Source: Patescibacteria group bacterium (lineage in GTDB: Bacteria; Patescibacteriota; Minisyncoccia; Phycocordibacterales; SBAW01). From it: a stretch of DNA of 64,000 nt. Location: the NCBI GenBank assembly GCA_016176685.1, contig JACOWS010000001.1:78113-142112 (forward strand). Direction: 5' to 3'. A program made the translations under genes and the position numbers. Under the pieces are notes generated by a model. It did not search any database, was not told the DNA's origin, and saw nothing but the letters and a program-made list of their open reading frames with translations. Positions 1,157 to 55,630 of the stretch are shown here, piece after piece. Every line of letters starts with the position of its first letter. The first letter of the stretch is position 1.

Positions 1157-1426
1157 ATGCGCCTTCGCCAGCAGACCAACAAATTCAAGAAGGACCTCAG
1201 GCGCATGGTGCGCCGGGGTGCACGGGTCGACGACCTCGCTGCCGTAATCGATATTCTTGCCGCTGATACGGCCTTGCCCAAGGCGTGCCGCCCACACAAA
1301 TTGGTAGGTGACTATGCCGATCTCTGGGAGTGCCACATCGCGCCTGACTGGCTCCTTATCTATGAATTGCCGGAGGGAGTCGTACTGCTCCATCGCACCG
1401 GTACACATGCCGACCTATTTGACTGA
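1157..1426 (+). CDS. yafQ: type II toxin, YafQ/RelE family mRNA interferase
   Basis: C-terminal HIAPDWLLIYELPEGVVLLHRTGTHADLF matches YafQ HVEPDWILIYKLTDKLLRFERTGTHAALF; 8-bp gap after the antitoxin gene. Confidence 0.8.
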   Translation: MRLRQQTNKFKKDLRRMVRRGARVDDLAAVIDILAADTALPKACRPHKLVGDYADLWECHIAPDWLLIYELPEGVVLLHRTGTHADLFD

Positions 1427-1610
1427 TAGTCACAATTTCCCCCCCCATCACGATTTTCGACCTGTGTGGTACTGTATCCCTTGATGATCTCCTTCACGAA
1501 CGACTCCAACCGAAATGTTCGATTCTTGTCCCGGGTGGGGGCACCAAGATAGCGAGAATAAATAGACGTTAAGGGGAATAAAAAATTAATCATATAATCT
1601 AAATTATTTT

Positions 1611-2021
1611 ATGGAACAAGAATCACGAATATATAAATTTTTTATGACCTTGCCTTTTTGGTGGATACTGTTAACAGCTATCTATGTTGGTCTAACATTT
1701 TCAGGCTGGTTGTATGCGGCAGCATTACTGGGTCTGTTCGTTCCTATCGGGGTGTGGGATATGCTATTCTTTAGATTCGCAATTTCAGGATACCCCGTCG
1801 GAGGAATTGGCCTATGGGACTTTGCCATTGGTTTTGTGTTAGTCTTGCTGACTATTTTTGGTGGGGAATGGCTTATTCGTAAGATCAAATTATCTCCTGC
1901 CATGAAAATTTTTGTTATTCTTGGCATACTTTTTGCGCTAACTATTGTGGTTGATTTTGTTCTCTGGGGGAACTGGCAGACGCTAGAACTTCTTAAAGTA
2001 GGTGGCGAGATAACGATATAA
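1611..2021 (+). CDS. hypothetical polytopic membrane protein
   Basis: low-GC ORF, 4 predicted TM helices, Trp-rich; first gene of the low-GC island. Confidence 0.45.
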   Translation: MEQESRIYKFFMTLPFWWILLTAIYVGLTFSGWLYAAALLGLFVPIGVWDMLFFRFAISGYPVGGIGLWDFAIGFVLVLLTIFGGEWLIRKIKLSPAMKIFVILGILFALTIVVDFVLWGNWQTLELLKVGGEITI

Positions 2022-2035
2022 TTATGCTAAATCTG

Positions 2036-2500
2036 CTATGTTTTGTTCAAATTCTCGTAATAGTTTCTTAGAGCTTCCTCTTGTATTTTATGTAAATGTA
2101 TACTCGGCCTTTTAGATGCAATTAAATCAATTGCTTCCTTTGGTTTATACCCTCTTTGTATCAAATAAGCCGATACCAATGTGGGCGCACGCCCATGACC
2201 GTTTTTGCAATGTACATAGATCTTTCTATTTTGAGATACGAGTTTTTGTATTGACTCCGCGCCGAAAGAAAGTTGGTCTTGAGTGGGAGCCATTTGATCA
2301 ACCACTGGAATCCAAACATATATATCGACGCCAAATGGAACATCGAGACGGTTTTCTTCGAGTGATATATCGGCAGTTATGTTTTCTTTCTTCAACACGT
2401 CGGCAAGACCCATGACACAACACTGATTGGTGCCGATATAGATGCCATCGGTAATGTAACTATATTCCAGTATCGGCGTTTTCGGGTGAGTATGATCCAT
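2036..2500 (-). CDS. dual-specificity / protein-tyrosine phosphatase
   Basis: VHCKNGHGRAPT = HCxxGxxR(S/T) catalytic P-loop of the Cys-based phosphatase family. Confidence 0.7.
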   Translation of the reverse strand: MDHTHPKTPILEYSYITDGIYIGTNQCCVMGLADVLKKENITADISLEENRLDVPFGVDIYVWIPVVDQMAPTQDQLSFGAESIQKLVSQNRKIYVHCKNGHGRAPTLVSAYLIQRGYKPKEAIDLIASKRPSIHLHKIQEEALRNYYENLNKT

Positions 2501-2528
2501 ACTAATATTCGATTAAACCGTTTAAATC

Positions 2529-3953
2529 TTACCCAAAAAGCCGAAATAACATGCGCAAAAGTTTTTTTGAACGCGGGTTTAATGCACGCCCTTGGTATGT
2601 TTGAGCGGCCCGCTTATTGATTCTTGCGGCGGTCGGGTACGGATAAATCTTAGCAAATAAATCGGCAAGAGACAGGTGGTGTGTCTGCGCCAATATAAGT
2701 TCCTGTATAAGTTCACCGGCATGTGGAGCAATCATCGTCCCGCCCAATATGTTCCCTTTCTTTGAAACATAAATATTTAACAGGCCATCGCGATAATCGT
2801 CTGTGATGGCGCGATCATCATGAGAGAAATGTTCTGTAACTGTTTCGTACTGGACACCGCGCTCTTTAAGCTCCTCGGTGGAAATGCCGAATGTTGCAAT
2901 TTCCGGGTCGGTGAATGTAACCCAAGACAGGTTGTCGTTAACGAGCTTCTGTTTAAACGGGGAAAACCAATTATGGATGATGGTACTGGCATGAAGTTCG
3001 GCTGCGTGCGTAAATTGATATTGTCCGGCGACATCACCGCACACGACAATATTTTTATTGGTTGTGCGCAGGTACTGGTCGACTTTCAGTTTCTGCCCGC
3101 TTTCCTCAAGTTCGATATGAGCCTTTCCCAGATCAAGGCCTTCAATAGCAAGCTGCCTGCCAATACCTACAAATAATGAGTCCACCGGAAGCGACAGTTC
3201 ACGCCCCAAAACTTCCACGACGAGCTCTCTGCCCTCTCGTATATTTTTTGCCCGAGCATGGAAAAGGATATTCATTCCTTCGCCCACCAGTCGCTTATAC
3301 AAAATATCGGTAATATCTTTATCCTCTTTTGGAAGAAATTTTTCTCCTTGTTCAAGAATGGTAACCTGTGAACCCAGGCGTTGAAACGCTTGTCCGAGCT
3401 CTATACCGATAGGGCCCCCGCCTATGACGACAAGATTTTTAGGAAGAAAATCTATGTTGAAGATATTTTCATTGTTAAAGACCCGCGTATGCTCTATTCC
3501 CGGCAATGATATAGCGCGTGGTCGCGACCCCGTTGCCAACACAATACGCTTGCCTTCATACGCCACGCCTCCGACCATAACCTTATTTTGACTAATAAAT
3601 TTAGCTTCCCCCAGAACGACCGACATACCGCTTTTCCGAAACCAATCGGCATTTTCATGCTCGCGGATGATATCCTGCCTACTTTTCACATACGCCATAA
3701 CCGCCCGCATGTCCACCGTACCGGTATGGGTAATCCCAAATTTTTTAATGGTATGTCCCGCATGTACCGCGCGAGCGACATGAATAAGCGCTTTGCTTGG
3801 TACACAACCAAAATTCAAACAATCGCCGCCGATGCTCTTATCACTTTTATCAATGAGCAGGGTTGACAATCCTATGCGGTTTGCAAAAGCGGCGATATTC
3901 AACCCTCCGGAACCGGCGCCGATGACCATAACATCAAATATTTTATTTTTCAT
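2529..3953 (-). CDS. FAD-dependent pyridine nucleotide-disulfide oxidoreductase (Lpd/MerA-like, no C-terminal Cys pair)
   Basis: N-terminal VMVIGAGSGG FAD fold; redox-active GGDCLNFGCVPSK disulfide; second NAD(P) Rossmann VVIGGGPIGIELG. Confidence 0.8.
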   Translation of the reverse strand: MKNKIFDVMVIGAGSGGLNIAAFANRIGLSTLLIDKSDKSIGGDCLNFGCVPSKALIHVARAVHAGHTIKKFGITHTGTVDMRAVMAYVKSRQDIIREHENADWFRKSGMSVVLGEAKFISQNKVMVGGVAYEGKRIVLATGSRPRAISLPGIEHTRVFNNENIFNIDFLPKNLVVIGGGPIGIELGQAFQRLGSQVTILEQGEKFLPKEDKDITDILYKRLVGEGMNILFHARAKNIREGRELVVEVLGRELSLPVDSLFVGIGRQLAIEGLDLGKAHIELEESGQKLKVDQYLRTTNKNIVVCGDVAGQYQFTHAAELHASTIIHNWFSPFKQKLVNDNLSWVTFTDPEIATFGISTEELKERGVQYETVTEHFSHDDRAITDDYRDGLLNIYVSKKGNILGGTMIAPHAGELIQELILAQTHHLSLADLFAKIYPYPTAARINKRAAQTYQGRALNPRSKKLLRMLFRLFG

Positions 3954-3957
3954 GTTT

Positions 3958-4620
3958 TTACCTTGATGCTATCCTCGTACTTACATACCAGCTTATAAAA
4001 ATTACGGCTGCGGCAAGAAAAACCAGCGGTTGCAACCACACAGGCAGTGTTCCCGCGTACGCAAATACAAAGGCAAATGGCGTGACCCCGATTACCGTAG
4101 CAAAAAAATATGAACGACTCCCTATATTAGAAAAAAGGCCAATGGCATATGACAATATATCAACCGGTATGAGCATCCTAAGAAAAACAATCGTCCAAAA
4201 CATGTTTTGTGTTGAGAATCGTTCCTCAAATCTGTTTAGCTTATCAATGGAAACAAGTTTTTCCACCAGTGGTTTGCCAAAATATCGCGCAATATGAAGA
4301 GCTATTTGAGCGCCGATTGACCAGCCGATAATAGAAAGTATGGCGGCCGCAACCCACCCCCATAGACCAGCGGCCACGGGGATAAGCGGGATGGTTGAAA
4401 TTGGCGCGACCACTACCGCAAGTATGGTGATAAAAACATAGGCTGCCATGCCAAATGCCCCGCCGCGTTCCGCAAGCATGTTTATTTCACTCGCATATAT
4501 TGTTGCCATAAATGATAAAAAAACAAAAAGGGCGAGCACGAGCGCCAGGCTAAATACTGATGCAACGGCATTTTTATTAAAAATATGATTGGCGCTTTTC
4601 TCCATATATTTATTCAACAA
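3958..4620 (-). CDS. DedA/TVP38-TMEM64 family membrane protein
   Basis: polytopic membrane protein with the DedA-like core FLRMLIPVDILSYAIG. Confidence 0.5.
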   Translation of the reverse strand: MLNKYMEKSANHIFNKNAVASVFSLALVLALFVFLSFMATIYASEINMLAERGGAFGMAAYVFITILAVVVAPISTIPLIPVAAGLWGWVAAAILSIIGWSIGAQIALHIARYFGKPLVEKLVSIDKLNRFEERFSTQNMFWTIVFLRMLIPVDILSYAIGLFSNIGSRSYFFATVIGVTPFAFVFAYAGTLPVWLQPLVFLAAAVIFISWYVSTRIASR

Positions 4621-5545
4621 TCACATCTATTTTGCTTCCAAAAACTTTTGAAGCTTTTTCCGTATAGAGCGCTATATTATCTTTAAAATACGGCGGGTGC
4701 TGTTTTTGAATTTGTGCGACAATATAATAACCAATGGCCATCATAGCGGCGTACCCGGCATCTTTTGGAAGCGGTATAGAAAGTCTCCTATCTGGCTCGC
4801 CCCACATAGTATTTTCCTCGCCAAAGCTCACAAAAAGCTCGTTCGAAGGCACTACGGTTACCGCATGTTTCATATATTCGCTGGTTTCCACATCGCGAGC
4901 AATCTTTCTTCCGAAAAGCTCAATGAACTTTACTTCAAGCATTCGTACAATACCTGAAAACCTTGGAGGAACGATGAAAAAATAGGAATCATACTGCGAA
5001 AAGTCTGGGAAGATAATGGTGTCTATCTGTTCTTTAATAAATTCCTGTATTTTCTCCGGGTCTTCGTTCGTTTTCCCTAAAATCATTCCCAAATAGGTAG
5101 AGGTATTATAGGTATACGGCTCGCGATTTTTTGGAAATATAAATATATCGCCAGACTCGACAAATTCTTTTACGGGCGCATCAGAATTGTTGGTAATGAG
5201 AGTAACTTTCTTGCCGAGCTCTTTCGCCCGCTTTGCTATAATCGGCGCGTGTTTCCCGCCGGACGCGGAGATAAGAATTACACCGTCAATATCGGGGATG
5301 TACTTTAGTTTACTTTCAAAATTACTCTCTGAAGCGAAGACTGCGTCTGTGTCTTCAAAAATAATTCTCCCGGTTGCTTCAGCATTACCAGACCCGACCA
5401 CGAGCGGGCGTTTATACTTTAAAATATCTAATTTCGGCAATGCTTGTTTTTGAAAAAGTTCAAGTGCGCCCAAGACCGCCACATCCAAGTCGGGAATGGT
5501 GTTTAAAGTAAATGTATTAAGAATATCAATGTTTTTATGATTCAT
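4610..5545 (-). CDS. SIS-domain-like protein, possibly phosphoglucose/phosphomannose isomerase type (uncertain)
   Basis: two Gly/Ser-rich nucleotide/sugar-phosphate binding-like segments (PLVVGSGNAEATGRI, GVILISASGGKHAPII); co-directional and immediately downstream of zwf-gnd. Confidence 0.3.
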   Translation of the reverse strand: MNHKNIDILNTFTLNTIPDLDVAVLGALELFQKQALPKLDILKYKRPLVVGSGNAEATGRIIFEDTDAVFASESNFESKLKYIPDIDGVILISASGGKHAPIIAKRAKELGKKVTLITNNSDAPVKEFVESGDIFIFPKNREPYTYNTSTYLGMILGKTNEDPEKIQEFIKEQIDTIIFPDFSQYDSYFFIVPPRFSGIVRMLEVKFIELFGRKIARDVETSEYMKHAVTVVPSNELFVSFGEENTMWGEPDRRLSIPLPKDAGYAAMMAIGYYIVAQIQKQHPPYFKDNIALYTEKASKVFGSKIDVIVE

Positions 5546-5556
5546 AATTTTAAGTA

Positions 5557-7956
5557 CTATATTTTATGTCCGCCAAAAACAGCGCGAAGCATGGAAAGAA
5601 TTTTTCCCGTAAATGTCGGGTTCTTTTTTGAGCGTACACGGAAGAGATACGAATCTTTTATGACAGGAGCAGAAACGTCGAGCTCTTTTGCAGTCTGTAC
5701 CGTCCATTCTCCCTCGCCGGTATGAGCCACGGTACTGGATGCTTTTTTCAAGTCATCGCCATACTCTTTAAACCCCTCTTCCAGCCACCCGGTAAGTCGT
5801 GAGGTAATAATGCTGTTTTGATTGTACACATTGGCAACCTCTCGCAGACGAAACTTAAACGGCGCTTTTTGAAGTATTGCAAACCCTTCCGAGAGCGCCT
5901 GCATCATCCCATACTCAATGCCGTTATGAACCATTTTTGCGAAGTGTCCCGCTCCAGCCGCTCCCATATGTCCAGAAGTCGTATCAGACATCGCGTCAAA
6001 AATTGATTTACTGTTCTCATATATTTTTTTATCTCCCCCCACCATAATGGCAAATTTTCCAAGGGCGATAGAGACTGGTCCGCCGGAGACGCCCACATCG
6101 AGAAAATGGATTCCTTTTGCTTTCAATCGCTTTCCTCGACGAACAGAGTCTTTATAGAAAGAATTACCACCGTCAATTACGGTGTCGTCTCTTTTGAGTA
6201 ATTGTGAAAGGCCATTTTGCTTCATCCCGGGCGAAGTCGATTGACCAAAGAGTATCTCGTCCACCGGTTTCCCGGCCGGGACCATAAGCCATATGGTTCG
6301 CGGAGGGGAAAGTTTTTCCACAAATTCCGAAAGAGAATATGCGCCGACCACGCCTTCTTTCTCAAGCTCTTTTGTGGCTTCAGGCGGCGTGTTGAATCCA
6401 ACAACCCTCCATTTTTTTATACTTAGGCGTCTTGCAAGATTGGCACCCATTTTCCCTAAACCGATAATGCCAATCTCTCCGATGTGGTTGCCTACTTCTT
6501 TATCTGCACTGTCTGACAATTCTCTCGTGAAAGACGGGCCGGGGGTACTGTCGGGTTTATATTCGGTCAAAGGCACGAGATTTTGCCTCCATCCCTCTAC
6601 TACCGGATCGGTAAATTTCCAAGATACCAGCACCTCATCGGAAGAGATAAACAAGGTTTGGTCACCTCCCATGGCAGTATTGATAATTTTTGAATACTCT
6701 TCTATATACTGAACTTTTGTCTCTTTTTCATACAAAAAGAAAGAGAAAACGCGTTCTTCTATGGCTTTTTCAAAACCTGGTTTTTTTGTCCAAAAATGTA
6801 TGATGACTTCATCGTTTGGTTCAAGACGAAACACAATTCTGTTTGGAGCATGCGGCCTTTGTGCACACAGAAGACATATTTTTGGGTGCCTAAGCGTCAA
6901 TACTATTTCTTTACGGGCTTCTCCCATGCGCTTCCCAGCTTCCATATATATGGGAATCCCGCTCCAACGAGGATGCAGGAGCTCTGTTTTTAGAGCGAAG
7001 TATGTTTCCGTCTCCGAATTTTGAGCTACCCCCTTTATATCTTTGTAGTTACGGTACTGTGATCTGAAAGTTTCTTTCCGCAGGGTTTCCTCTGTCCACG
7101 GTTTAAGCGTTTCCAAAATAGTTGCTCTGTTTTTCCGTATCCCGCCAGCATTCATATCGGCAGGGTACTCCATAGTAATCGCGGCCAGCATGGTAAGAAT
7201 ATGGTTTTGTCCGACATCACGAAGCGCTCCGACTGAATCATAAAAACCTCCTCTGTCTTCTACCCCAATAGATTCAAGCAGGCGGATATCAATCCGCTCA
7301 ATCATGGTGTTGTCCCAAGCATTCTCAAAAAGATTATTTGAGAAACGAAAGTTTTCTATTCCCTGAATAATTTCCTTGTATAAGTAATGGTCGATTCTAT
7401 ACATTTGCTCTTCTTTGAAATAAGTGGAGAGGAGCGATTGCAGTTTTTTGGCGCTTGACAGATCCGTCCCGAATGGTTTTTCAATCAAAATACGGCTCCA
7501 CCCCATATCTCCTCCGCAGGGCAAGTTAAGTTTTGCTAGAGCGAGATTTTTGAAGATTCGCTCATACGAAGACGGCGGTACGGCAAGATAAAAAAGTTTA
7601 TTGGCGCATATACCCCAACCGTTTTCTATCTCTGCAATGCGGTCTGATAAAGATTGAAACGCTCCCACGTCCTCGAATGTTCCTGCGTGATAGGTGAAGA
7701 GTTCAAAGAAACGGTCAATCTTTTTATCTTCTATTTTTGAATCTGCATGTTTTTTTACCGCTTGGAGAATCAGATTTTTAAACTCTTTATCCGAAAACTC
7801 TCTTCGTGAAAACCCTATGACAGACAAGCGTTCCGGCAAGCGACCATGCTGAAATAGGTGCCAAAGGGACGGTATAATCTTTTTGGCGGCCAAATCTCCC
7901 GTTACACCAAAAATAGTGAAGATGGAAGGCGTATTTTTTATGTTTTCACTACTCAT
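5557..7956 (-). CDS. zwf: fused glucose-6-phosphate dehydrogenase / 6-phosphogluconate dehydrogenase (Zwf-Gnd)
   Basis: N-terminal half has G6PD signatures (FGVTGDLAAKKIIPSL NADP site; EKPFGTDL; C-terminal YKPDSTPGP). C-terminal about 300 aa is a short-type 6PGDH (IGIIGLGKMGANLARRL Rossmann, GHFAKMVHNGIEYGMMQ). Start taken at MSSENIK (7956). Confidence 0.8.
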   Translation of the reverse strand: MSSENIKNTPSIFTIFGVTGDLAAKKIIPSLWHLFQHGRLPERLSVIGFSRREFSDKEFKNLILQAVKKHADSKIEDKKIDRFFELFTYHAGTFEDVGAFQSLSDRIAEIENGWGICANKLFYLAVPPSSYERIFKNLALAKLNLPCGGDMGWSRILIEKPFGTDLSSAKKLQSLLSTYFKEEQMYRIDHYLYKEIIQGIENFRFSNNLFENAWDNTMIERIDIRLLESIGVEDRGGFYDSVGALRDVGQNHILTMLAAITMEYPADMNAGGIRKNRATILETLKPWTEETLRKETFRSQYRNYKDIKGVAQNSETETYFALKTELLHPRWSGIPIYMEAGKRMGEARKEIVLTLRHPKICLLCAQRPHAPNRIVFRLEPNDEVIIHFWTKKPGFEKAIEERVFSFFLYEKETKVQYIEEYSKIINTAMGGDQTLFISSDEVLVSWKFTDPVVEGWRQNLVPLTEYKPDSTPGPSFTRELSDSADKEVGNHIGEIGIIGLGKMGANLARRLSIKKWRVVGFNTPPEATKELEKEGVVGAYSLSEFVEKLSPPRTIWLMVPAGKPVDEILFGQSTSPGMKQNGLSQLLKRDDTVIDGGNSFYKDSVRRGKRLKAKGIHFLDVGVSGGPVSIALGKFAIMVGGDKKIYENSKSIFDAMSDTTSGHMGAAGAGHFAKMVHNGIEYGMMQALSEGFAILQKAPFKFRLREVANVYNQNSIITSRLTGWLEEGFKEYGDDLKKASSTVAHTGEGEWTVQTAKELDVSAPVIKDSYLFRVRSKKNPTFTGKILSMLRAVFGGHKI

Positions 7957-7972
7957 TGTCTTTATGTTGCCA

Positions 7973-8188
7973 TTATGCAAGCAACCCCATAACCTGAAAG
8001 ATATACCCGACAATGATTAACATGATACCCGCAATCCCCATGATTCGCTCCGTCCCCATTTCTTTTACGACACGAGAATCAATCGCGTGCTCTTTACGCG
8101 CACGATCGTGCACCTGAAGAACGGTATAGGCAATCAGAACGGTTCCGATGACATCAAGAGTAATTCCGATAATTAAGAAGGCTGTCAT
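7973..8188 (-). CDS. small membrane protein (hypothetical)
   Basis: 71-aa ORF with two TM helices, co-directional in island operon. Confidence 0.35.
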   Translation of the reverse strand: MTAFLIIGITLDVIGTVLIAYTVLQVHDRARKEHAIDSRVVKEMGTERIMGIAGIMLIIVGYIFQVMGLLA

Positions 8189-8613
8189 ACAAATATTTTT
8201 TTAGTAAGATACATTGAAAGAGGCAGTAAGAAAGTCATTTGAAGAATCGGGGTAAGGCCGACCTTTAGATACGGAATAATCGGCATACCCTCCGCATAAG
8301 CCCATCGCTCGAACAGCAAGGCGCGCCATTCAATCCCTACGGCTATTAAGAATCCAATGACGGCAAAAACGGCAAAATCTTTTTTGTTTAGCGTAGAAAT
8401 CCAATTACGGTCATTTTTTAATAACGCGACAATAAAATAAACAAATAAGGTAACGGCGACATCGCCTATGGTGCCAACTACACATATCGGGAAATGCAAA
8501 GAAAAAGATGCATACCCTTGGTACAAAGGCGCTTGCATATTCTCCCAGACGACATGCAGAACAAACGCAATAAGAGATAAAAAAATAATTTGTTTTCCTA
8601 CTTTCATATACAA
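8185..8613 (-). CDS. membrane protein (hypothetical)
   Basis: 142 aa, 4 TM helices, immediately downstream of merA-like gene, 4-nt overlap. Confidence 0.45.
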   Translation of the reverse strand: MYMKVGKQIIFLSLIAFVLHVVWENMQAPLYQGYASFSLHFPICVVGTIGDVAVTLFVYFIVALLKNDRNWISTLNKKDFAVFAVIGFLIAVGIEWRALLFERWAYAEGMPIIPYLKVGLTPILQMTFLLPLSMYLTKKIFV

Positions 8614-10031
8614 CAGCTTAGTTTAGAAATATCTTTCGTAAATGAAAGTGCGACAATCTTTATCGCCTCCGATAGAGTAGGAAACATCGGGAGCGAATTG
8701 ACCACATCGTCAATCGTATTTTTGTTTTTTATGAGCATCATCGCCTCGGCAATCAGCTCGCTCGCATTTGGAGCGAGAATATGAACGCCTAAGATTTGTT
8801 TTGTGTGCGGATGGATCGCCATTTTTATCATTCCCTCGGTGCGATGAGTAATGATCGCTTTCGGTACATCGGCAAGCGAAACGGTGCGGCAGGCGCACAC
8901 CCCCATTTGCTTCATCTGCTCGTCCTCGGTGAAGCCGACACCGGCGAGTTGTGGGTCGGTAAAAATAGCGTAAGGGACAGTGTGATAGTCAATAAACAAT
9001 TGCGCGTCTTTGAGGGCGTTTTCAGCGGCGAGCGTGCCCTCGCGTCCGGCGGTTGACTCCAGCCGCAAGGGTCCGCTCGTAACATCGCCGACCGCAAAAA
9101 TATTTTTGTTGGAAGTTTGAAAATTTTGATTAACGATAACCGCCTGCCGCTTATCTACTTCAACGCCGGCCAAATCAAGTCCCAGTCCTTGCGTGTTGGG
9201 TGTTTTGCCCGCCGCCAAAAGTATTTCATCTCCCGATACTTCTTCCGATTTTCCATTTACGAGATACGAGATTATCTTTTTATCGTTTTCTTTTCGCGCG
9301 CTTTTCACCTCGACATTGGTCTTGATGGTAATTCCTTCTTTTGACAACACTTCGGCGAGTCGGTCGGTGAGCGTTTTTTCAGAGTGCGGAAAAATTGAAT
9401 CGCCGCGTTGTAAAATAGTTACCTTTGTGCCAAAACGGCTGAACATTTGGGCAAATTCCAAGCCAAGCGGGCCCGCGCCGATGATAACCAATTCTTTCGG
9501 CTGACGCGGAAGGCGCAGTGCCTCAATATGCGAGACAAATCCTACTTCTTTAATTCCTTCAATCTCCGGAACATTGGCGGTCGAGCCGGCAGCGATAATA
9601 AATTTTTCCGCGCTCAACTTTTCGCCGGCTTGCCCCGAGCTTGTCGAGCGGGTCACTTCCACCTCGTTTTCGGAAACAAATGTTGCTTTTCCCTCAACGA
9701 GCGTTACATACTCTAGACTTTTCAGTACCTTCTCGTATTTTTCTTGACGCAATTTGTCCACAAGCGAGAGTTCATCTTGCACGACTTTTTGAAAATCAAA
9801 ACTTTTTACTTCAAGCTCAACACCGGCGACGCCGTGATGTTTGGCGTGGTGCAAAATTTCTCCGGCCCAGAGAAGCGTCTTTGACGGTACGCACCCGACA
9901 TTGACGCAAGTGCCGCCGAGCGGAAGCCCGTCATTGATGATCGCCGTTTTCGCCTTCAGTTCGTTGGCACGGATAGCGGAGGCAAATGCGCCTGCGCCGC
10001 CGCCGATGATGATTAGGTTAAATTCTTGCAT
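8604..10031 (-). CDS. merA: mercuric reductase-like flavoprotein (MerA core, no N-terminal metal-binding domain)
   Basis: IIIGGGAGAF FAD site; GGTCVNVGCVPSK redox disulfide; C-terminus ...KDISKLSCCI matches MerA C-terminal vicinal Cys pair (Tn501 ...KDVKQLSCCAG). Confidence 0.75.
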   Translation of the reverse strand: MQEFNLIIIGGGAGAFASAIRANELKAKTAIINDGLPLGGTCVNVGCVPSKTLLWAGEILHHAKHHGVAGVELEVKSFDFQKVVQDELSLVDKLRQEKYEKVLKSLEYVTLVEGKATFVSENEVEVTRSTSSGQAGEKLSAEKFIIAAGSTANVPEIEGIKEVGFVSHIEALRLPRQPKELVIIGAGPLGLEFAQMFSRFGTKVTILQRGDSIFPHSEKTLTDRLAEVLSKEGITIKTNVEVKSARKENDKKIISYLVNGKSEEVSGDEILLAAGKTPNTQGLGLDLAGVEVDKRQAVIVNQNFQTSNKNIFAVGDVTSGPLRLESTAGREGTLAAENALKDAQLFIDYHTVPYAIFTDPQLAGVGFTEDEQMKQMGVCACRTVSLADVPKAIITHRTEGMIKMAIHPHTKQILGVHILAPNASELIAEAMMLIKNKNTIDDVVNSLPMFPTLSEAIKIVALSFTKDISKLSCCI

Positions 10032-10090
10032 AAAGTTATGCGGGAAGACGCTCCTTGAGCATATCAGCAACGGCGGAAAATGTATATTGA

Positions 10091-10849
10091 TTAAAGGTAA
10101 TCCAACAGACAGTCATAATTTATAAATTGGAATAATTGATAGCCGTAGGAGATAAGCAGTCCGATTTTCCCGGAGACCAAAAGTATGCCGAGGAACACCA
10201 GGAAGATACCGCCGATAATTGAAATAGCGTTAAGATATTTAGAAATATTTTTGATGTAGCGGGAAGCCGAACCGATGCCAATGGCAATGAGCAAAAACGG
10301 AATTGCCAAACCGGCGGAAAAAACGGTAAGCAGCAGTCCGCCCTGCAGGGCGCTGCCGGAGGTAGACGCTAAAAGTAAAACGGAGCCCAATATCGGCCCA
10401 ACACACGGAGTCCAACCGAAAGAGAAAGCCGATCCGAGGATAAAAGAGTTTATCGGTTTTCCCTGCTTAAAAAGAGCCGGGACTTTCAACTGCTTTTCTC
10501 GCATTAAAAACGGAATTTTCAACACATTCAACATGAACAGCCCGAAGATGATGACAAAAACTCCCCCAATTCTCCCAAGCCACAATCGATACGGGGCGAG
10601 AAACGAGGCCGCGATAAAGCCAACGAGCGTTCCCATAATAATAAAGACTGCACTGAACCCAAGCATAAAGAAGAGACCATTGAGTAAAATTTTCCAGCGC
10701 GCGCGCTTCGCCTTTTCCGGGTCTTTAAGGTCATCCAAGGACGCTCCGCTGATAAACCCTAAATAGCCGGGCACCAACGGGAGAGTGCAGGGCGCCAAAA
10801 AAGTGAGCATACCAGCGATAAAGGCGGGGATGATAAGTGATAAGTCCAT
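10091..10849 (-). CDS. ccdA: cytochrome c biogenesis / thiol-disulfide transporter CcdA (DsbD core) family
   Basis: 6 TM; conserved Cys in TM1 (FLAPCTLPLVPGY) and TM4 (GWTPCVGPILG) diagnostic of CcdA/DsbD-beta. Confidence 0.8.
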   Translation of the reverse strand: MDLSLIIPAFIAGMLTFLAPCTLPLVPGYLGFISGASLDDLKDPEKAKRARWKILLNGLFFMLGFSAVFIIMGTLVGFIAASFLAPYRLWLGRIGGVFVIIFGLFMLNVLKIPFLMREKQLKVPALFKQGKPINSFILGSAFSFGWTPCVGPILGSVLLLASTSGSALQGGLLLTVFSAGLAIPFLLIAIGIGSASRYIKNISKYLNAISIIGGIFLVFLGILLVSGKIGLLISYGYQLFQFINYDCLLDYL

Positions 10850-10864
10850 AATTATTTATCTAAT

Positions 10865-11398
10865 TTATGATGATATTAATTTCTGAATCTTTTGGCGAAT
10901 TTCGTTGATATCCATCGGCCCTCGCTTATGCTCTGCAATGGCGCCGTTCCTGTCAACAAAAATCGTTTCGGGCATTGAAAAACCGCTGATGGCCTGATAA
11001 AACGAATCGCCTTGGTCAAGAAGAAAAATCAAATCATTGCTCGTGCCTTGCATATCGGTGTAACCTTTTGCCACTGCTAGGCTCTCTTGCCTGTTTATCG
11101 CGATAATAACAACTTTGTCGCCGAATTCTTTTTGCGCCGTTACGAAATCCGGAAGTTCTTTTCTGCAAAAAGGGCACCACGCCGCCCAAGCATTGATCAC
11201 CAACGGTTTGCCCGAAAAATCGGCAAGGGTTACTGTTTTTCCATTATAATCTTTCAAGGCAAGATTTTTAATGGATGAATCCAGGCTCACGATGCTTACA
11301 TCGGCGGGTTGACTTGAACTACCGCGCTGGAGAACTATAACGATCACTCCCAAAACAACCGCGACGATCGCAATAGAAATAATTATTTTTGCGTTCAT
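10865..11398 (-). CDS. TlpA/ResA-like thioredoxin-fold thiol-disulfide oxidoreductase, membrane-anchored
   Basis: N-terminal TM anchor; VINAWAAWCPFCRKELP = WCxxC thioredoxin motif. Confidence 0.75.
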   Translation of the reverse strand: MNAKIIISIAIVAVVLGVIVIVLQRGSSSQPADVSIVSLDSSIKNLALKDYNGKTVTLADFSGKPLVINAWAAWCPFCRKELPDFVTAQKEFGDKVVIIAINRQESLAVAKGYTDMQGTSNDLIFLLDQGDSFYQAISGFSMPETIFVDRNGAIAEHKRGPMDINEIRQKIQKLISS

Positions 11399-11423
11399 AG
11401 ATTTTAGAATAGATTATTACAAT

Positions 11424-12452
11424 TCATTGTAATAATTCCGTGTCGGGATGCGCGGCAACCCAGGAAAACCAGAACGAGCCGAACGGATTGATGCGCTCAC
11501 GCGTCCCATCGGCTTTCTTTTCATAGAGGCGAATAGCGTCAATGTCTTTCTCATATTCCGCGATAATTATTTTGCCTTGAAAAGAATCTTCAACTACTCC
11601 AATTTTCTTGACCGCCGTCGGCCAATATGCCTTGGCTTTACCGTCCACCACTATTCCCAAAACAAACTCTTTTTCACTCAGCCGATTATCTTTTTTATCG
11701 ACCGGGAAAAAAGTGCCGGGTGAAGTATAGTAGTCCCCATACGGGTCTTGTCCGTAAAATCTTGCCGCTCCGGTGTCTTGCGAAAGCACCTCGCCATTCG
11801 GATGAAGTTTCCGCCAATCCCCGAATCGAATCTGGTCTGACGGCAAGACTTCAAGCCGCGTTCCGGTCTTTTCTCCAACGATTGCTTCGCCTAAAATCTG
11901 CGACCACAACGAATCGGTTTTGCGGTCATACATTACCAAGTTGGAATTCCAAAGCTTGCCGGATGTGCCGAATTCCACTCGTTCTCCGTCCACCATTGGG
12001 GCAAAAACAATTCCCGACAAACACAGCGGGCAGTAGGTAACGAGCACTCGCCGGCCGTTAATAGTATCGTTGACGATTTCGTGCCACACCAAAATTTGAA
12101 ATGGATAAAAACGGCTCACGTTGTCCATTTCAAGCGCCAGACCGGGCTCGGTGTCTTGCAACTGCTTGCTCGCCTCACTGATAGAAATAAATTTTGGACG
12201 GTCAATGGAGGGAATGCCGTCTTTTGCGGGACCGCCGCCCAGGATAGAATCCAAGGGAACACTATGTTTTACTCCGTTTGTAACCATAATTTCTTTATTT
12301 ACTTCACCGCCGTTGTCTAGAATCGTGATTGTTTCTTCTTTGGCTTCTCCACCTTTCGGCAAAGAAAAATCGTCTCTTATAAATCGCTGCCACAATATAA
12401 CGGCAATCGTCGCGATAAAAATAACTATAATTATTGCGCTACTTTTTTTCAT
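11424..12452 (-). CDS. DUF3179-family exported protein
   Basis: N-terminal anchor; GGGPAKDGIPSIDRPKF and YCPLC segments characteristic of DUF3179. Confidence 0.55.
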   Translation of the reverse strand: MKKSSAIIIVIFIATIAVILWQRFIRDDFSLPKGGEAKEETITILDNGGEVNKEIMVTNGVKHSVPLDSILGGGPAKDGIPSIDRPKFISISEASKQLQDTEPGLALEMDNVSRFYPFQILVWHEIVNDTINGRRVLVTYCPLCLSGIVFAPMVDGERVEFGTSGKLWNSNLVMYDRKTDSLWSQILGEAIVGEKTGTRLEVLPSDQIRFGDWRKLHPNGEVLSQDTGAARFYGQDPYGDYYTSPGTFFPVDKKDNRLSEKEFVLGIVVDGKAKAYWPTAVKKIGVVEDSFQGKIIIAEYEKDIDAIRLYEKKADGTRERINPFGSFWFSWVAAHPDTELLQ

Positions 12453-12654
12453 GGATTTTTTCCCAAAGTTCTAACCCTCTTCGGAACAGTCTCCAGTCTT
12501 TGCCAAGACATTTTAAGCAACTCCCAAAACGTTCGCCCGCTTTTAAATATTGTTTATTACCGCAGGGCACGCATATATAAAGACCGTCCTCAGGTACCGT
12601 TGCCCCTACTTTATACGTATCTGCTTGATTTTGTTTTCTTGAAAATAATTTCAT
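12439..12654 (-). CDS. small zinc-ribbon protein
   Basis: CVPC-x14-CLKC four-Cys ribbon; 14-nt overlap with downstream gene. Confidence 0.4.
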   Translation of the reverse strand: MKLFSRKQNQADTYKVGATVPEDGLYICVPCGNKQYLKAGERFGSCLKCLGKDWRLFRRGLELWEKIHEKK

Positions 12655-12666
12655 TGATGTATAGGT

Positions 12667-13173
12667 TTAATTGATAAGCGAGGTAATATCTGATTCCTGG
12701 ATATCTCCGGGAATAGTACGAACAAGGTTACCGTTTATATCTATCAGAAGATGGGTATTGGTGTACTGAATGCCGAAAGCGCGCGAGATGCGGCCGCTAG
12801 GATCAAGCGCGATGGGGAACGTAATGCCTTTTGTTGCGATAAATTTTTCTATGGTTGACTCTGATTCCTGAAGATTAACCCCGACAACCTCCACCTTATC
12901 CTTGTATTTTTCATAAAAACGATTAAGGTTCGGCATATCGCGGCGGCAGTTTGGACACCACGAAGCCCAAAAATCAACCACGACTGGTTTCTTTCCCCTA
13001 AACTCCGCGAGTGTTATCGTGCCACCACCCAACTTCTGTAGCGTAAAATCCGAAACGGCGGCAGTATGCACTGAAGCGGTACCGGGAGTGGCATTGCTAC
13101 TGGAGAATTTGCCGAACACCAAAAGACCTACCACAACCACCACTACGCCCACGATAAGAAATTTTGTACTCAT
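12667..13173 (-). CDS. TlpA/ResA-like thioredoxin-fold thiol-disulfide oxidoreductase, membrane-anchored (second copy)
   Basis: N-terminal TM; VVDFWASWCPNCRRDMP WCxxC motif. Confidence 0.75.
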   Translation of the reverse strand: MSTKFLIVGVVVVVVGLLVFGKFSSSNATPGTASVHTAAVSDFTLQKLGGGTITLAEFRGKKPVVVDFWASWCPNCRRDMPNLNRFYEKYKDKVEVVGVNLQESESTIEKFIATKGITFPIALDPSGRISRAFGIQYTNTHLLIDINGNLVRTIPGDIQESDITSLIN

Positions 13174-13184
13174 ATGCTTGGACT

Positions 13185-13421
13185 TTACGTAATCCCCAAA
13201 AGCTTTCGAAGTTTTGGCTCGTCAAAACCCGTTACCATCTCATTATCGACCAAAATGACCGGTACGCCCATTTGGCCACTTTTTTGAATCATTTCATCAC
13301 GTCTCGCAGAATCTTCCGAAACGTCATAGTCAGTGAACGCAATAGTGTGTTCCTTGAAAAATTCTTTAGTCGCATGACAGAAGTGACACGTTGGCGTTGA
13401 ATACATAATTACGTTTTTCAT
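13185..13421 (-). CDS. glutaredoxin/NrdH-like redoxin
   Basis: MYSTPTCHFCHATKEFF CxxC at the N-terminus of a ~78-aa thioredoxin fold; GVPVILVDNE motif. Confidence 0.7.
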   Translation of the reverse strand: MKNVIMYSTPTCHFCHATKEFFKEHTIAFTDYDVSEDSARRDEMIQKSGQMGVPVILVDNEMVTGFDEPKLRKLLGIT

Positions 13422-13466
13422 AGTGTTTTTAAGTTATTTTTTAATTACATTACTTTGATAATTCTT

Positions 13467-14057
13467 TTACTCACGGGCCTTTTTCAATGCTCGTGCCCAC
13501 CACAAAAGCTGGGTGATCATGGTTTCTGCTTTCTTTGACTGCGAAGCAAATAGGTCTTTAGCTTCCGTCTTGCCGAATACCACTGGAAAATACTGTTCAC
13601 CCGGAATGTGTACGGCCGCTCGGATAGGTGCCATTTGAAGCTCGATGGCATTCATGCGCAACTGTTCAATGGCGCGCGCACCTCCGGCGCTACCATAACT
13701 CACAAAGGCAACCGTCTTGTTATTCCATTCCGGATACACCCAATCCAGCGCGTTTTTTAGCACGCCGGATGTTCCGTGGTTGTATTCGGGCGTGACGATG
13801 ACAAAAGCATCGCCTTCTTCTATTTTTTTGGTAAAACGCGCGACCGCTTCGTTTTTATATGGTTCTTGTTTGAATGACGGACTTACTGCTTCATTAAAAA
13901 ATGGCATTTCGTAGTCGCGCAAGTCAAGCACTTCAACCACGACCCCTTCCTGTTTCCCGATTTCTTCGGCAATCCACAGAGCAGCCTTGTCACTAAATCG
14001 ACCCTCACGAGTGCTACCGGCAATTACTTTAATAGTAAGTGATGCGTTGTTTTTCAT
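13467..14057 (-). CDS. NADPH-dependent FMN reductase family protein
   Basis: IKVIAGSTREGRFS and VIVTPEYNHGTSGVLKNALDW are signature segments of the FMN_red (ArsH/ChrR/YieF) family. Confidence 0.75.
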   Translation of the reverse strand: MKNNASLTIKVIAGSTREGRFSDKAALWIAEEIGKQEGVVVEVLDLRDYEMPFFNEAVSPSFKQEPYKNEAVARFTKKIEEGDAFVIVTPEYNHGTSGVLKNALDWVYPEWNNKTVAFVSYGSAGGARAIEQLRMNAIELQMAPIRAAVHIPGEQYFPVVFGKTEAKDLFASQSKKAETMITQLLWWARALKKARE

Positions 14058-14064
14058 ATTACTT

Positions 14065-14373
14065 TTACATTACACTGATAATCTTCTTAATTTTTGGGTC
14101 CTCTATCTTTGGCCTGTAGCACATCATCTGCCCCATCTTTTCGCCCTCGATCATTCTCGACATCTCAAGTATCCGCAGGTGTTGCGATACTGCCGATACT
14201 GAAATATCCAGGACATTGGCAAGGTCGGTGACACACAATTCCCCTTGTTCGATAAGAAGTTTTATAATAAGAAAGCGATTCTGGTCTCCAAGCAAACCAA
14301 ACACATCGACCAAAGAAGTGCTTTGTGCCTTAAGGGTTTCCTTAATTTTTGATATTTGCGCTGGTTCTAACAT
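14065..14373 (-). CDS. ArsR/SmtB-family metalloregulatory transcription factor
   Basis: winged HTH LIIKLLIEQGELCVTDLANVLDISVSAVSQHLRILE; first gene of the minus-strand redox operon. Confidence 0.75.
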   Translation of the reverse strand: MLEPAQISKIKETLKAQSTSLVDVFGLLGDQNRFLIIKLLIEQGELCVTDLANVLDISVSAVSQHLRILEMSRMIEGEKMGQMMCYRPKIEDPKIKKIISVM

Positions 14374-14473
14374 ATTTAAGTATTTGCGTTAATGCTTAAA
14401 TATTACTCCCACCCATAACAATAGTCAAATCCATCATGTGGATAACCGAACCGTACCATTCGCTTCGCTACTA

Positions 14474-14545
14474 TCCTCTCGGCAGGAATCGAACCTGCAT
14501 CGCCTCCTTCGGAGGGAGGTATCTTATCCATTAGACTACGAGAGG
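14474..14545 (-). tRNA. tRNA-Arg (anticodon CCG)
   Basis: reverse complement folds as CCTCTCG/CGAGAGG acceptor, D-arm GTCT..AGAT, anticodon stem CCTCC/GGAGG with loop CTCCGAA, T-arm GCAGG-TTCGATT-CCTGC; CCA not encoded. Confidence 0.85.
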
Positions 14546-30911: not shown

Positions 30912-30932
30912 GTTACATATCCAATATTGAAA

Positions 30933-31550
30933 CTATACTTGGTAGCCATAATTTAAAAGCACGGCCCTAAATGATTGATAATCTTTGTATTGTTGGCCAT
31001 TAAACCCAGCCTTATTTGAATTCTGTATGTTTTCATCACGATCATCCCAATACATAATTTCTCCCTTCTCAAATATATTGTATTTTTCTTTAATCCTTTG
31101 ATATATCTTTTCTAAACCTTCAAGGCTGTGTTTGTATACACCCAGACTAGCAGAACAGAATATTTCATCAAAAACCTTACTGTAGGAATATTTGCGCACT
31201 AAATATTGATTTCGATATTTTTCTTGGTTAGTTGCCACACAAACAACCAACCCTTGTTTTTTAAGTTTAGCGATTGACGCGTAAACATCTTCATACAACA
31301 CATTACCAACCGCAAACCAATACTGCATCAGTTCATCGACCGTGCCTTTCCATTTCCATATTTCTACCACTTGTGCAAGTTCCTCTCTGAGGTCTGCTTT
31401 ACCTGTTAGACATTTTTTAAACGGTCCGTCGAAGAAAGGCATCATGGTGGTAAGGTCCACACCAAACTCTTTTGAGTATTGATCACTAAAACGGCCACCG
31501 TGAATTATCATGCCATCATTGTCATAAATTATTACTTTTGGCTTTTTCAT
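30933..31550 (-). CDS. HAD-superfamily hydrolase
   Basis: N-terminal IIYDNDGM (DxDG motif I), low GC. Confidence 0.55.
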   Translation of the reverse strand: MKKPKVIIYDNDGMIIHGGRFSDQYSKEFGVDLTTMMPFFDGPFKKCLTGKADLREELAQVVEIWKWKGTVDELMQYWFAVGNVLYEDVYASIAKLKKQGLVVCVATNQEKYRNQYLVRKYSYSKVFDEIFCSASLGVYKHSLEGLEKIYQRIKEKYNIFEKGEIMYWDDRDENIQNSNKAGFNGQQYKDYQSFRAVLLNYGYQV

Positions 31551-31591
31551 AAAACTTGATTTGCTAGCTGCGCGAGGCAGTATCGATAACA

Positions 31592-32002: not shown

Positions 32003-32012
32003 TTTATAAAAC

Positions 32013-55039: not shown

Positions 55040-55138
55040 GTGGTGCTGTATGCCCCCACGTTCACGTCTCGTGAATGTTTGGTGCCTAGTTGGTGGTATC
55101 TACCATCTCTCAAACCAAGGTTTTCGGGACGCAAAGGA

Positions 55139-55579: not shown

Positions 55580-55630
55580 TCTACATCAGTACTTTAAGAG
55601 ATGAAACGTTATTTGTGAGGTGAAACTCAT

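Follow-up and report, generated by a model that had tools for sequence, protein, structure and literature searches.

Gene content of the locus

We analysed a 64,000-nt stretch of DNA from a Patescibacteria group bacterium (NCBI GenBank assembly GCA_016176685.1, contig JACOWS010000001.1, positions 78,113 to 142,112 of the forward strand), referred to as the window, in whose own coordinates all positions are given. On its minus strand, merA, the gene for mercuric reductase, stands within a run of genes for thiol-disulfide exchange. We argue that this locus is probably composite, with a merA from a compact Candidate Phyla Radiation (CPR) mer operon grafted into a conserved thiol-redox operon of Patescibacteria. 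The open reading frames (ORFs) between 6.5 and 16.5 kb, classified with Pfam and NCBIfam, comprise eleven on the minus strand in the order ArsR, flavin mononucleotide (FMN) reductase, glutaredoxin, TlpA, zinc-ribbon, DUF3179, TlpA, CcdA, MerA and two small membrane proteins, here called TM142 and TM71. An earlier note on this DNA, made from the letters alone, had listed these genes in this order, and its family assignments are upheld by both databases. It had placed the operon at 8185-14373; the eleven genes are there, but the last, a 71-aa gene, falls outside the 8185 start, and the co-directional run goes on for five genes further, to about 16 in total (2036-14373). The features of the eleven-gene part are listed first; loci from other genomes carry L numbers.

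14428-14400, minus strand: sigma-70-like promoter, TTGACT-17-TAATAT (promoter scan)
14399-14376, minus strand: putative ArsR operator, a 24-bp imperfect palindrome, TTAAGCATTAACGCAAATACTTAA, directly after the promoter (sequence and conservation)
14065..14373, minus strand: ArsR/SmtB repressor of the module type (HTH_5, E 6e-14; NF033788, 73.9 bits against a cutoff of 55)
13467..14057, minus strand: NAD(P)H-dependent FMN reductase, FMN_red (Pfam, E 5e-40)
13185..13421, minus strand: glutaredoxin-like redoxin (YruB/NrdH-like), cytoplasmic, active site CHFC (Pfam, E 1e-19; TIGR02196, 84.7 bits, below its cutoff of 88.55)
12667..13173, minus strand: TlpA/ResA-like thioredoxin no. 1, WCPNC, with an N-terminal hydrophobic anchor (Pfam/NCBIfam)
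12439..12654, minus strand: 71-aa zinc-ribbon-like protein with four Cys, CxxC...CxxC (sub-threshold DUF1451 match, E 1.4e-3)
11424..12452, minus strand: DUF3179 protein, membrane-anchored at its N-terminus, motif C141-P-L-C144 (Pfam, E 1e-88)
10865..11398, minus strand: TlpA-like thioredoxin no. 2, WCPFC, membrane-anchored (Pfam/NCBIfam)
10091..10849, minus strand: CcdA, the DsbD transmembrane core (Pfam DsbD_TM, 61.4 bits; C21 in APCTLP, C149 in WTPCVGP)
10036..10073, minus strand: 3'-end relic, 34-38 nt, of a mer-type (3-Cys) arsR (...ADMLKERL..*), the left breakpoint (blastn against L170-L175 and L004; alignment)
8604..10031, minus strand: merA, archaeal/CPR-type core mercuric reductase without NmerA (ORF to 10070, probable start ATG at 10031)
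8185..8607, minus strand: TM142, a CPR-restricted 142-aa membrane protein (ORF to 8613, probable start 8607; ATGA overlap with the merA stop)
7973..8188, minus strand: TM71, a 71-aa two-helix membrane protein without Cys, which in many module copies precedes a fusion of glucose-6-phosphate dehydrogenase and 6-phosphogluconate dehydrogenase (G6PD/6PGD)

Neighbouring genes of the run are -14 to +59 nt apart. Stop and start codons overlap as ATGA both between merA and TM142 and between TM142 and TM71, and the 59 nt between ccdA and merA hold no convincing terminator. Predictions of internal promoters (23, against 14 +/- 4 expected) and terminators (19, against 13 +/- 4) were not used as evidence. 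The two TlpA-like proteins match the Redoxin, AhpC-TSA, ResA and TlpA models, and CcdA has one conserved Cys in each transmembrane repeat (C21 and C149). As read from the sequences, both TlpA-like proteins and DUF3179 are each anchored outside by an N-terminal helix, and the glutaredoxin-like protein is cytoplasmic. The small four-Cys protein has homologues in modules of the same kind elsewhere (L092, L095, L123). Genes for ResB/CcsB, CcsA/ResC or c-type cytochromes were not found among the 16 genes of the run.

Identity of the reductase and selection on merA

By sequence criteria, the reductase is an authentic MerA, for which Hg(II) reduction is predicted. It scores 518 bits with the equivalog model TIGR02053 (cutoff 454.45) and 380 bits with the lipoamide_DH model, below the cutoff of 408.8 for that model. 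Its closest solved relatives are the mercuric reductases 5x1y (Lysinibacillus), 4ywo (Metallosphaera) and 1zk7 (Tn501), and it is 100% identical to an NCBI entry annotated as mercury(II) reductase from Patescibacteria; DUF3179 and TM142 each have an NCBI counterpart of 100% identity from Patescibacteria as well. The CxxxxC redox pair (CVNVGC, GGTCVNVGCVPSK) aligns with that of all three structures (Bacillus C207/C212; Tn501 C136/C141), as does the C-terminus, DISKLSCCI, with their LSCC (Bacillus C628/C629; Tn501 C558/C559). A Tyr is present at the position of Bacillus 264 and Tn501 Y194 (RQEKYEKVL, against RHAKYEGIL in Tn501, where residue 100 of the 1zk7 chain is Y194), and a Phe occupies the position of Bacillus 605 and Tn501 Y535 (LPMFPTL, against LFPYLTM in Tn501 and VHMFPTI in Metallosphaera, 4ywo). 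An NmerA/HMA domain is absent. MerA has been defined by these residues, with Phe accepted for archaeal MerA and shared by 46 bacterial MerA, and a CPR lineage of MerA is described as laterally acquired from thermophilic archaea (Christakis, Barkay & Boyd 2021; PMC8261052).

The earlier note had called the protein MerA-like, with a C-terminal SCC pair and no NmerA, and had made its mercury-specific reading depend on the metal-binding tyrosines and on the protein not grouping with dihydrolipoamide dehydrogenases. This call was right: the chain ends SCCI, the redox Cys pair, the tyrosine equivalent to Tn501 Y194 and the C-terminal CC are kept, and the Phe in place of Y535 is the accepted archaeal-type state. 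The mercury-specific reading also stands, with the lipoamide dehydrogenase score below cutoff and mercuric reductases as the top structures.

The gene is full length, with every catalytic residue retained, and its ratio of non-synonymous to synonymous substitution rates (dN/dS) is 0.07-0.10 against seven relatives. In one of these (L023; dS 0.78), merA meets TM142 at the same junction as here, and the low ratio, found also in that comparison, indicates that merA is maintained by purifying selection in its present arrangement.

Breakpoints and the relic of a cognate regulator

The compact CPR mer operon, as we defined it from L001, L004, L013, L018, L022 and L170-L175, is where the closest relatives of this MerA are found. 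Amino acid identity to the MerA of L170-L175 is 88-90%, and the nearest of these proteins (88-89%) come from units arranged as ArsR-MerA-MerT-HMA (L170-L172), ArsR-MerA-redoxin-MerC (L173/174) and ArsR-MerA-DSP-MerT (L175). At the DNA level, homology between the window and these operons (blastn) passes the merA start by 42 nt, up to 10073, and ends 17 nt past the ccdA stop. Within this extension, 10036-10069 is the last 30-odd nt plus the stop codon of a mer-type arsR (...GATATGCTCAAGGAGCG.CTT......TAA), followed by a CTTT spacer and the merA ATG. The cognate 3-Cys ArsR itself is absent upstream of the window merA, where the 3' relic alone is left, and this relic shows that merA was captured secondarily. 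The right junction (...TGTTGTATATGAAA / ...AGCTGTTGTATATGAAA) is the merA stop/start overlap common to all these mer operons, and the sequence beyond it tracks whichever gene lies downstream, be it MerT, redoxin, DSP or TM142.

In another module copy (L112), what stands between ccdA and TM71 is different: DoxX-like genes, a flavodoxin-like reductase and a Cys/His-rich peptide. A Vogelbacteria locus (L006) has merA embedded independently, elsewhere in the module, with a methyltransferase upstream, a 166-aa protein downstream and no mer-type ArsR. In the same locus, DUF3179 appears split into ORFs of 59 and 160 aa (L006 7405-8063), which could reflect decay of the putative client or an assembly error. 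The compact operons L170-L172 and L175 also carry an ArsR-(DsrE-like)-FMN_red unit divergent from ArsR-MerA, and the 82% DNA identity between that FMN_red and the one in the window links the FMN reductase to both kinds of unit.

A thiol module without an obligatory MerA

Two sets of 80 loci were used to delineate the backbone. The MerA-centred set comprised loci from species-representative genomes; the neighbourhoods of close relatives were added to it, and all were searched by tblastn with all cluster proteins, and the DUF3179-centred set comprised metagenomic loci screened by tblastn with the cluster proteins. We define the CPR DUF3179 thiol module as a 2-Cys ArsR with a conserved promoter and operator, followed by co-directional genes for a glutaredoxin-like (Grx-like) protein, DUF3179 with its CPLC motif, a TlpA-like protein and CcdA. 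The window has every one of these parts, and the same set is found in 20-32 of the 80 DUF3179 loci as well as in L001 and L163-L165: at least two further core parts (ArsR, Grx, thioredoxin (Trx)-like, CcdA) accompany DUF3179 in 32 loci and at least three in 20, and 137 of the 140 core and accessory matches lie on the DUF3179 strand. The CcdA and TlpA proteins of the window are 62-87% identical to copies in MerA-less loci. TM142, TM71, the G6PD/6PGD fusion and the DSP-type phosphatase and 311-aa protein encoded further downstream in the run likewise recur in MerA-less operons (L112/L113, L163-L168).

Of the 80 DUF3179 loci, one (L114) has a MerA, encoded downstream as a unit apart, together with an ArsR and a MerF that belong to it. 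Co-occurrence of DUF3179, TlpA, CcdA and MerA, which the earlier note had proposed to look for in other genomes, is thus rare among these loci, 32 of which hold the module. Since the module is widespread and MerA is almost never present in DUF3179 loci, we regard the backbone as a CPR operon with no obligatory tie to MerA; a literature search found no description of this operon. Seen from the MerA side, 31 other loci encode a MerA of at least 65% identity, with the 3-Cys type of ArsR directly upstream in 20, a membrane protein with cysteines (MerT, MerC, MerF or a member of the 166-aa family) in 14 and HMA in five. Module parts near MerA in the close-clade loci (n=31) are Trx-like proteins (8), CcdA (5), FMN_red (5), G6PD/6PGD (4) and DSP (4).

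The cytoplasmic flavoenzyme of the module varies. Six DUF3179 loci have FMN_red, seven have a thioredoxin reductase-like (TrxR-like) gene and none has both, and in the window FMN_red fills the TrxR-like slot; tblastn found no TrxR-like gene in the window. Besides these seven, L001 and L163-L165 have the TrxR-like gene. In other module copies it adjoins the Grx-like gene, a pairing that resembles the Cp34/Cp9 system of Clostridium pasteurianum.

At the other end of the presumed pathway, the CPLC motif of DUF3179 shows no variation across 29 homologues, and neither do H63 and W123-H124-E125. Selenoprotein forms of DUF3179 with UxxC/T have been reported (PMC9312934, PMC13188914), and the selenocysteine of these forms would align with C141. 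The invariant CPLC and the reported selenocysteine forms together point to redox or metal-binding cysteines, and DUF3179 is likely, as far as its sequence indicates, to be the component in which the extracytoplasmic path ends, acting in redox or metal binding. Profile-based comparison of DUF3179 with the sequences in PDB yielded no relative.

Regulator, promoter and operator

The module's regulatory region is conserved together with its genes. The promoter and palindrome (TTGACA-17-TAnAnT, TTAAGCAnTT..AAnTGCTTAA) recur upstream of arsR in L086-L092, L097, L100, L101 and L112-L114, and the operator architecture persists in twelve or more module loci with coding identity down to 35-50%. Such an arrangement is typical of ArsR/SmtB operators, which overlap the transcription start. 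The window ArsR, which is 81% identical to that of L112, has two cysteines, C47 in alpha3 (ELCVTD) and C85 in the wing (GQMMCY), and this pair is conserved in the approximately 35 module ArsRs examined. C47 aligns with C61 of SmtB and with the alpha3 cysteines of CadC, and C85 in the wing is non-classical. Either a thiophilic metal or an oxidant could be what these two thiolates sense. A different, three-Cys signature (C24...KIC40YLLC44RH) marks the ArsR that lies upstream of MerA in other loci. No MerR-family Hg(II)-responsive regulator is encoded in the run, whose sole regulator is the ArsR/SmtB protein, and an Rfam scan of the window returned no riboswitch or other RNA element besides two tRNAs.

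Missing transporters and the nature of TM142 and TM71

The absence of MerT and MerP, noticed at first reading, is confirmed for the whole window. Queries for MerT, MerC, MerF, HMA, the 166-aa family and a MerT-like 122-aa protein gave chance-level matches in tblastn against all 64 kb (MerE and MerH were not among the queries), and Pfam returned no Hg(II) uptake family among the cluster proteins. A Cys-bearing membrane protein of the MerT, MerC, MerF or 166-aa kind is missing beside the window merA, and the downstream gene there is TM142.

Homologues of TM142 fall into about 114 clusters; the protein matches no Pfam family and occurs in the MerA-less modules L163-L168. Its conserved positions are W21-E22, D49 and E93, with one near-invariant Cys and no Cys pair. 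The idea that TM142 and TM71 are metal-binding transporters was rejected, as the two proteins have one and zero Cys, respectively, no His clusters, and are both typical of MerA-less modules; the metal-binding Cys/His motifs for which they had been singled out for checking are not present. TM142 and TM71 are parts of the thiol module, not mer genes. In a TM142 homologue from Harrisonbacteria (P0331), a DUF7128-like segment with four Cys forms the C-terminal part of the chain, a fusion which links TM142 to the small Cys-rich peptide of many module copies.

Two protein families at other loci touch on transport. A 122-aa MerT-like protein with ASLCCLxP in its first transmembrane helix is frequent in MerA-less modules (L001 4156-4524; L084, L105, L114, L115, L132, L135, L163-L165, L168). 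Its PF02411 matches range from sub-threshold to significant, it is 28% identical to the MerT of L170 and has the same ASLCCxxP motif, and it is a true but distant MerT homologue. The second family, of 166-174 aa, follows MerA directly (L001 11409-11909; L004, L006, L013, L018, L022); its members are apparently multi-pass membrane proteins with the motif AACxSCxAxxxGFLG and a C-terminal CxxC. Matching no Pfam family, it is a candidate new family of Hg(II) transporters. Its identification as MerH was tried and rejected, there being no detectable similarity.

Downstream genes, flanks and composition

The remaining five genes of the run and the tRNA gene at its other end are as follows.

5557..7956, minus strand: fusion of G6PD and 6PGD, a source of NAD(P)H (Pfam G6PD_N/C and NAD_binding_2/6PGD; TIGR00871, 463 bits, and TIGR00872, 310 bits, both above cutoff)
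4610..5545, minus strand: 311-aa protein with weak HAD/SIS-like matches, which follows G6PD/6PGD in L166/L167 too
3958..4620, minus strand: DedA/VTT membrane protein (Pfam VTT_dom, E 3e-15)
2529..3953, minus strand: second flavoprotein disulfide reductase, FDR2 (PRK06370-like, 437 bits)
2036..2500, minus strand: DSP/PTP-type phosphatase with HCX5R (VHCKNGHGR), the last gene of the run (Pfam DSPc)
14474..14545, minus strand: tRNA-Arg(CCG), its 3' end toward the operon, at the boundary of high and low GC (ARAGORN and Rfam)

The G6PD/6PGD fusion, with a 6PGD half of the short type, recurs in L001, L112 and L163-L168 and beside MerA in L009, L012 and L019, usually preceded by TM71; a literature search for this fusion in Patescibacteria returned nothing. 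FDR2 was considered as a second MerA and rejected, with 300 bits in the MerA model (below cutoff), no C-terminal extension and 27% identity to the window MerA. A gap of 4 nt separates the DedA/VTT gene from FDR2; DedA-DedA-FDR2 lies near DUF3179 in L139, and in L121 an FDR2 of 81% identity comes after DUF3179-Grx-TlpA. The DSP phosphatase lies within the module, between TlpA and CcdA, at nine DUF3179 loci, and directly after MerA in L011, L015, L070 and L175. It has an ATGA overlap in L175, and its Cys-based fold hints at a redox or arsenate-reductase-like role.

The entire run lies in a low-GC block at about 1400-14470, with GC of 0.37-0.47 against 0.55-0.64 in the flanks. The edge of this block coincides with the 3' end of the tRNA-Arg gene, where GC drops from about 0.6 to about 0.4. 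By blastn, the cluster is a mosaic, each segment being closest to a different locus. The 5' end of the module, promoter and operator included (about 85% DNA identity), adjoins tRNA-Arg(CCG) in the window and tRNA-Thr(TGT) in L112/L113 (L112 5619-5694), and these differing neighbours suggest tRNA-targeted mobility. We found neither a direct or att repeat matching the 3' end of tRNA-Arg nor any flanking ORF that encodes an integrase or recombinase domain, and a search for relatives of the window merA on viral contigs gave none. Mobility of the block is hinted at by composition, mosaic structure and differing tRNA neighbours alone.

A probable composite origin for the locus

We favour, with a probability of roughly 0.62, the explanation that the merA of a compact CPR mer operon was grafted into a conserved Patescibacteria thiol/NADPH operon. 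The backbone, presumably expressed from one ArsR-controlled promoter, would maintain thiols in the cytoplasm as well as beyond the membrane. NAD(P)H would be generated by the G6PD/6PGD fusion and consumed by FMN reductase, FDR2 and MerA. In the cytoplasm, electrons would pass through a flavoreductase (FMN reductase here, the TrxR-like enzyme elsewhere) and the glutaredoxin-like redoxin with its CHFC site; CcdA would then carry reducing equivalents across the membrane to the two anchored TlpA-like thioredoxins, which would keep the CxxC of DUF3179, and probably other surface cysteines, reduced. Into this operon, a lone merA from a 3-Cys ArsR-MerA-Cys-transporter operon would have been inserted between ccdA and TM142, with one breakpoint inside the cognate arsR and the other end joined where merA stop and TM142 start overlap as ATGA.

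NADPH-dependent reduction of cytoplasmic Hg(II) to Hg(0) is most likely still what the captured MerA carries out, now under the 2-Cys ArsR and promoter of the module. With no dedicated importer, entry of Hg(II) would be in the form of neutral complexes or complexes with thiols. Regulator and merA without an annotated transporter are also found on Paenarthrobacter and Cellulomonas plasmids in the gene table of PLSDB, which is incomplete. The functional logic of the graft would be that Hg(II) attacks the thiols that the module maintains and drains the same NADPH pool.

The earlier note had offered two accounts of the locus. As to the first, a detoxification route partly outside the cytoplasm, the independence of the module from MerA, the presence of close MerA relatives in compact operons and the arsR relic speak against an operon made for pairing MerA with extracytoplasmic electron delivery. 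The second, in which envelope disulfide repair and a soluble reductase are brought together by co-option, comes close to the evidence, and the direction of the event, which it had left undefined, can now be given: merA joined the thiol module.

Several points weigh against a composite origin as described. Co-transcription and ArsR control of merA are what we infer from the tight spacing and the conserved operator. The weakest link is the cytoplasmic entry of the electron path: the Grx-like CHFC protein is present and no TrxR-like gene is found in the window, and the gene for the donor could lie in another part of the genome; FMN reductases are not known to reduce redoxins. At the opposite end of the path, the AlphaFold2 model of DUF3179, built with 29 close homologues, is poor (mean predicted local distance difference test score 55, predicted template modelling score 0.46) and unusable. 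MerA also lies near module parts in about one-quarter to one-half of the close-clade loci, which is above chance for a genome of about 1 Mb. Finally, the module often has the MerT-like protein and Cys/His-rich peptides and may handle metals itself, which would make the insertion of merA less incidental.

Alternative explanations

The locus could instead be a dedicated system for mercury or soft metals, analogous to MerP/MerT, in which the extracytoplasmic CxxC proteins, DUF3179 and both TlpA-like ones, would bind Hg(II) outside the cell for the CcdA Cys pair to pass inward to the Grx-like protein and the C-terminal cysteines of MerA. We consider this unlikely. Trx-like or CcdA genes do adjoin MerA in several independent arrangements (L010, L013, L018, L173/174, L001, L006, L019, L114), but the Trx-bearing compact mer operons among them (L173, L013, L018) keep a 166-aa or MerC protein, so that the Trx-like protein supplements the transporter and does not replace it. 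The MerA-less module often carries the distant MerT homologue with ASLCCxxP and Cys/His-rich peptides, and its regulator belongs to a family of metalloregulators, with C47 at the classical alpha3 metal site; however, 31 of the 32 module-bearing DUF3179 loci are without MerA, and import of Hg(II) without a reductase would be harmful. Proteins with CcdA and TrxA domains have been annotated as 'mercury transporter' in Actinomycetes according to a review (PMC12195606), a precedent that consists of database annotation only and found no confirmation in the plasmid records examined. The nearest plasmid homologues of the window CcdA lie in copper-resistance islands with TlpA, Sco and CueR. The CcdA homologues on Rhodococcus plasmids were considered as mer-linked and set aside, as those examined lie in cytochrome c biogenesis clusters (resB, ccsB). 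Against a dedicated system also stand the arsR relic, which marks merA as a secondary arrival, and the 62-87% identity of CcdA and TlpA to their MerA-less counterparts, which makes them ordinary module members.

It is distinctly unlikely, in our judgement, that the CPR module itself handles thiophilic metals in such a way that its CxxC proteins bind Hg(II) or another soft metal and the cysteines of CcdA or the MerT-like protein relay it to the captured MerA. If this were true, the metal-relay module would be a new class of mer transport machinery, and metal relay the first function for DUF3179.

Adjacency without functional meaning, with the low-GC block as a mosaic of horizontal cassettes and merA as a passenger that may be poorly expressed, appears quite improbable. 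The block is compositionally foreign and a patchwork, its ccdA-TM71 slot holds other cargo in L112 and the same module 5' end stands beside differing tRNA genes across genomes, yet no integrase or att repeat was found. Moreover, merA overlaps the next gene in a frame-perfect ATGA and begins 59 nt downstream of ccdA, a gap that holds no convincing terminator. Purifying selection on it is strong, also in the lineage with the same junction. The independent embedding in L006, and the recurrence of Trx-like, DSP, FMN_red and G6PD/6PGD genes beside MerA at many loci, are further arguments for a functional association.

Recruitment of MerA as the NADPH-dependent disulfide reductase of the module, replacing the TrxR-like enzyme and feeding the Grx-like protein and CcdA with no role in mercury handling, would fit the missing TrxR-like gene, the membership of MerA in the flavoprotein disulfide reductase superfamily and the loss of the Hg-type regulator and transporter, but it is highly improbable given that modules with FMN_red and with neither TrxR-like nor MerA exist (L112/L113) and so do not need MerA for completeness, that the protein is 88-90% identical to canonical compact-operon MerA with all Hg-specific residues and a dN/dS of about 0.08 with no sign of relaxed or redirected selection, and that the run already encodes a generic disulfide reductase, FDR2.

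Comparison with known systems and significance

Relative to the compact CPR/archaeal-type mer operons (MerA lineage: PMC8261052), the window has a MerA of the same lineage, of the F605 type and without NmerA, with an identical merA-stop junction and an arsR relic, but it lacks the 3-Cys ArsR, the Cys-bearing transporter and HMA, and its merA stands under the promoter and regulator of another operon. The backbone is comparable to the CcdA-Etrx-MsrAB2 pathway of Streptococcus pneumoniae (PMC3914529) and to CcdA-ResA/TlpA pathways in combining CcdA with an anchored WCxxC thioredoxin-fold protein and a candidate client, and the role would be stress resistance, not cytochrome c maturation. It differs from the pneumococcal pathway in that the putative client is DUF3179 with its CPLC motif, not MsrAB, in the absence of ResB/CcsB and cytochrome c, and in having its own ArsR, Grx-like protein, flavoreductases and NADPH-generating fusion.

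Actinobacterial mer loci (pMAB23/pMM23, with ArsR-MerT divergent from merA-merH-merB) similarly have an ArsR-family regulator beside merA; however, their MerA lineage is different (approximately 33-35% identity), and the ArsR of the window is not mer-cognate. The copper islands that hold the closest plasmid CcdA (TlpA-Sco-CcdA-Grx with CueR and CopA; Roseovarius pSMR3-1; 42% identity) resemble the window in associating CcdA, TlpA and glutaredoxin with soft-metal resistance and a metalloregulator. Unlike the window, they are copper-specific (multicopper oxidase, Sco, P-type ATPase), have a CueR of the MerR family and contain neither DUF3179 nor MerA. Thioredoxins and low-molecular-weight thiols reportedly contribute to Hg(II) resistance, and the mer operon of Thermus thermophilus is said to be co-transcribed with the thiol-biosynthesis gene oah2 (work by Norambuena and colleagues in 2018). 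In that operon merA is likewise coupled to thiol homeostasis, but the partner there is cytoplasmic thiol synthesis under MerR, whereas the window couples merA to trans-membrane thiol reduction and NADPH supply under a non-cognate ArsR. The canonical mer operon of Tn21/Tn501 has a MerR-family regulator and MerT/MerP-type uptake; the run has no such regulator, and no such uptake protein was found in the window.

Both CPR MerA and CcdA/TlpA pathways were already known, each on its own. What is new is the rewiring of merA, the delineation of the module and several leads to mercury-handling proteins. The locus documents, with defined breakpoints and a relic, how a merA has lost its regulator and transporter and come under another stress regulon. 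For metagenomic surveys that count merA, this means that the presence of the gene implies neither Hg-inducible expression nor active uptake. Patescibacteria are thought to be minimal in redox metabolism. The backbone is an apparently undescribed operon of this group, in which an NADPH-making G6PD/6PGD fusion is tied to a presumed trans-membrane thiol path ending at DUF3179, and it provides a testable hypothesis for DUF3179. The comparison also gives leads to mercury-handling proteins, namely the 166-aa CxxC membrane family, the MerT-like paralogues in MerA-less modules and the Trx-like proteins in compact mer operons.

Additional observations

One of the MerA-less module relatives has unusual neighbours: in L166 (6538-11231, on a 156-kb contig), a module fragment in the order TlpA-G6PD/6PGD-311aa-DSP-TM142-CcdA is followed by the haem-copper oxidase genes COX_ARM, COX1, COX3 and COX4_pro together with a UbiA-family haem O synthase, which is unexpected if the contig is from Patescibacteria. 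Within the window, two other low-GC stretches (about 30000-34000 and about 54000-56000; GC 0.41-0.46, against approximately 0.53-0.58 elsewhere in the window) may also be acquired blocks.

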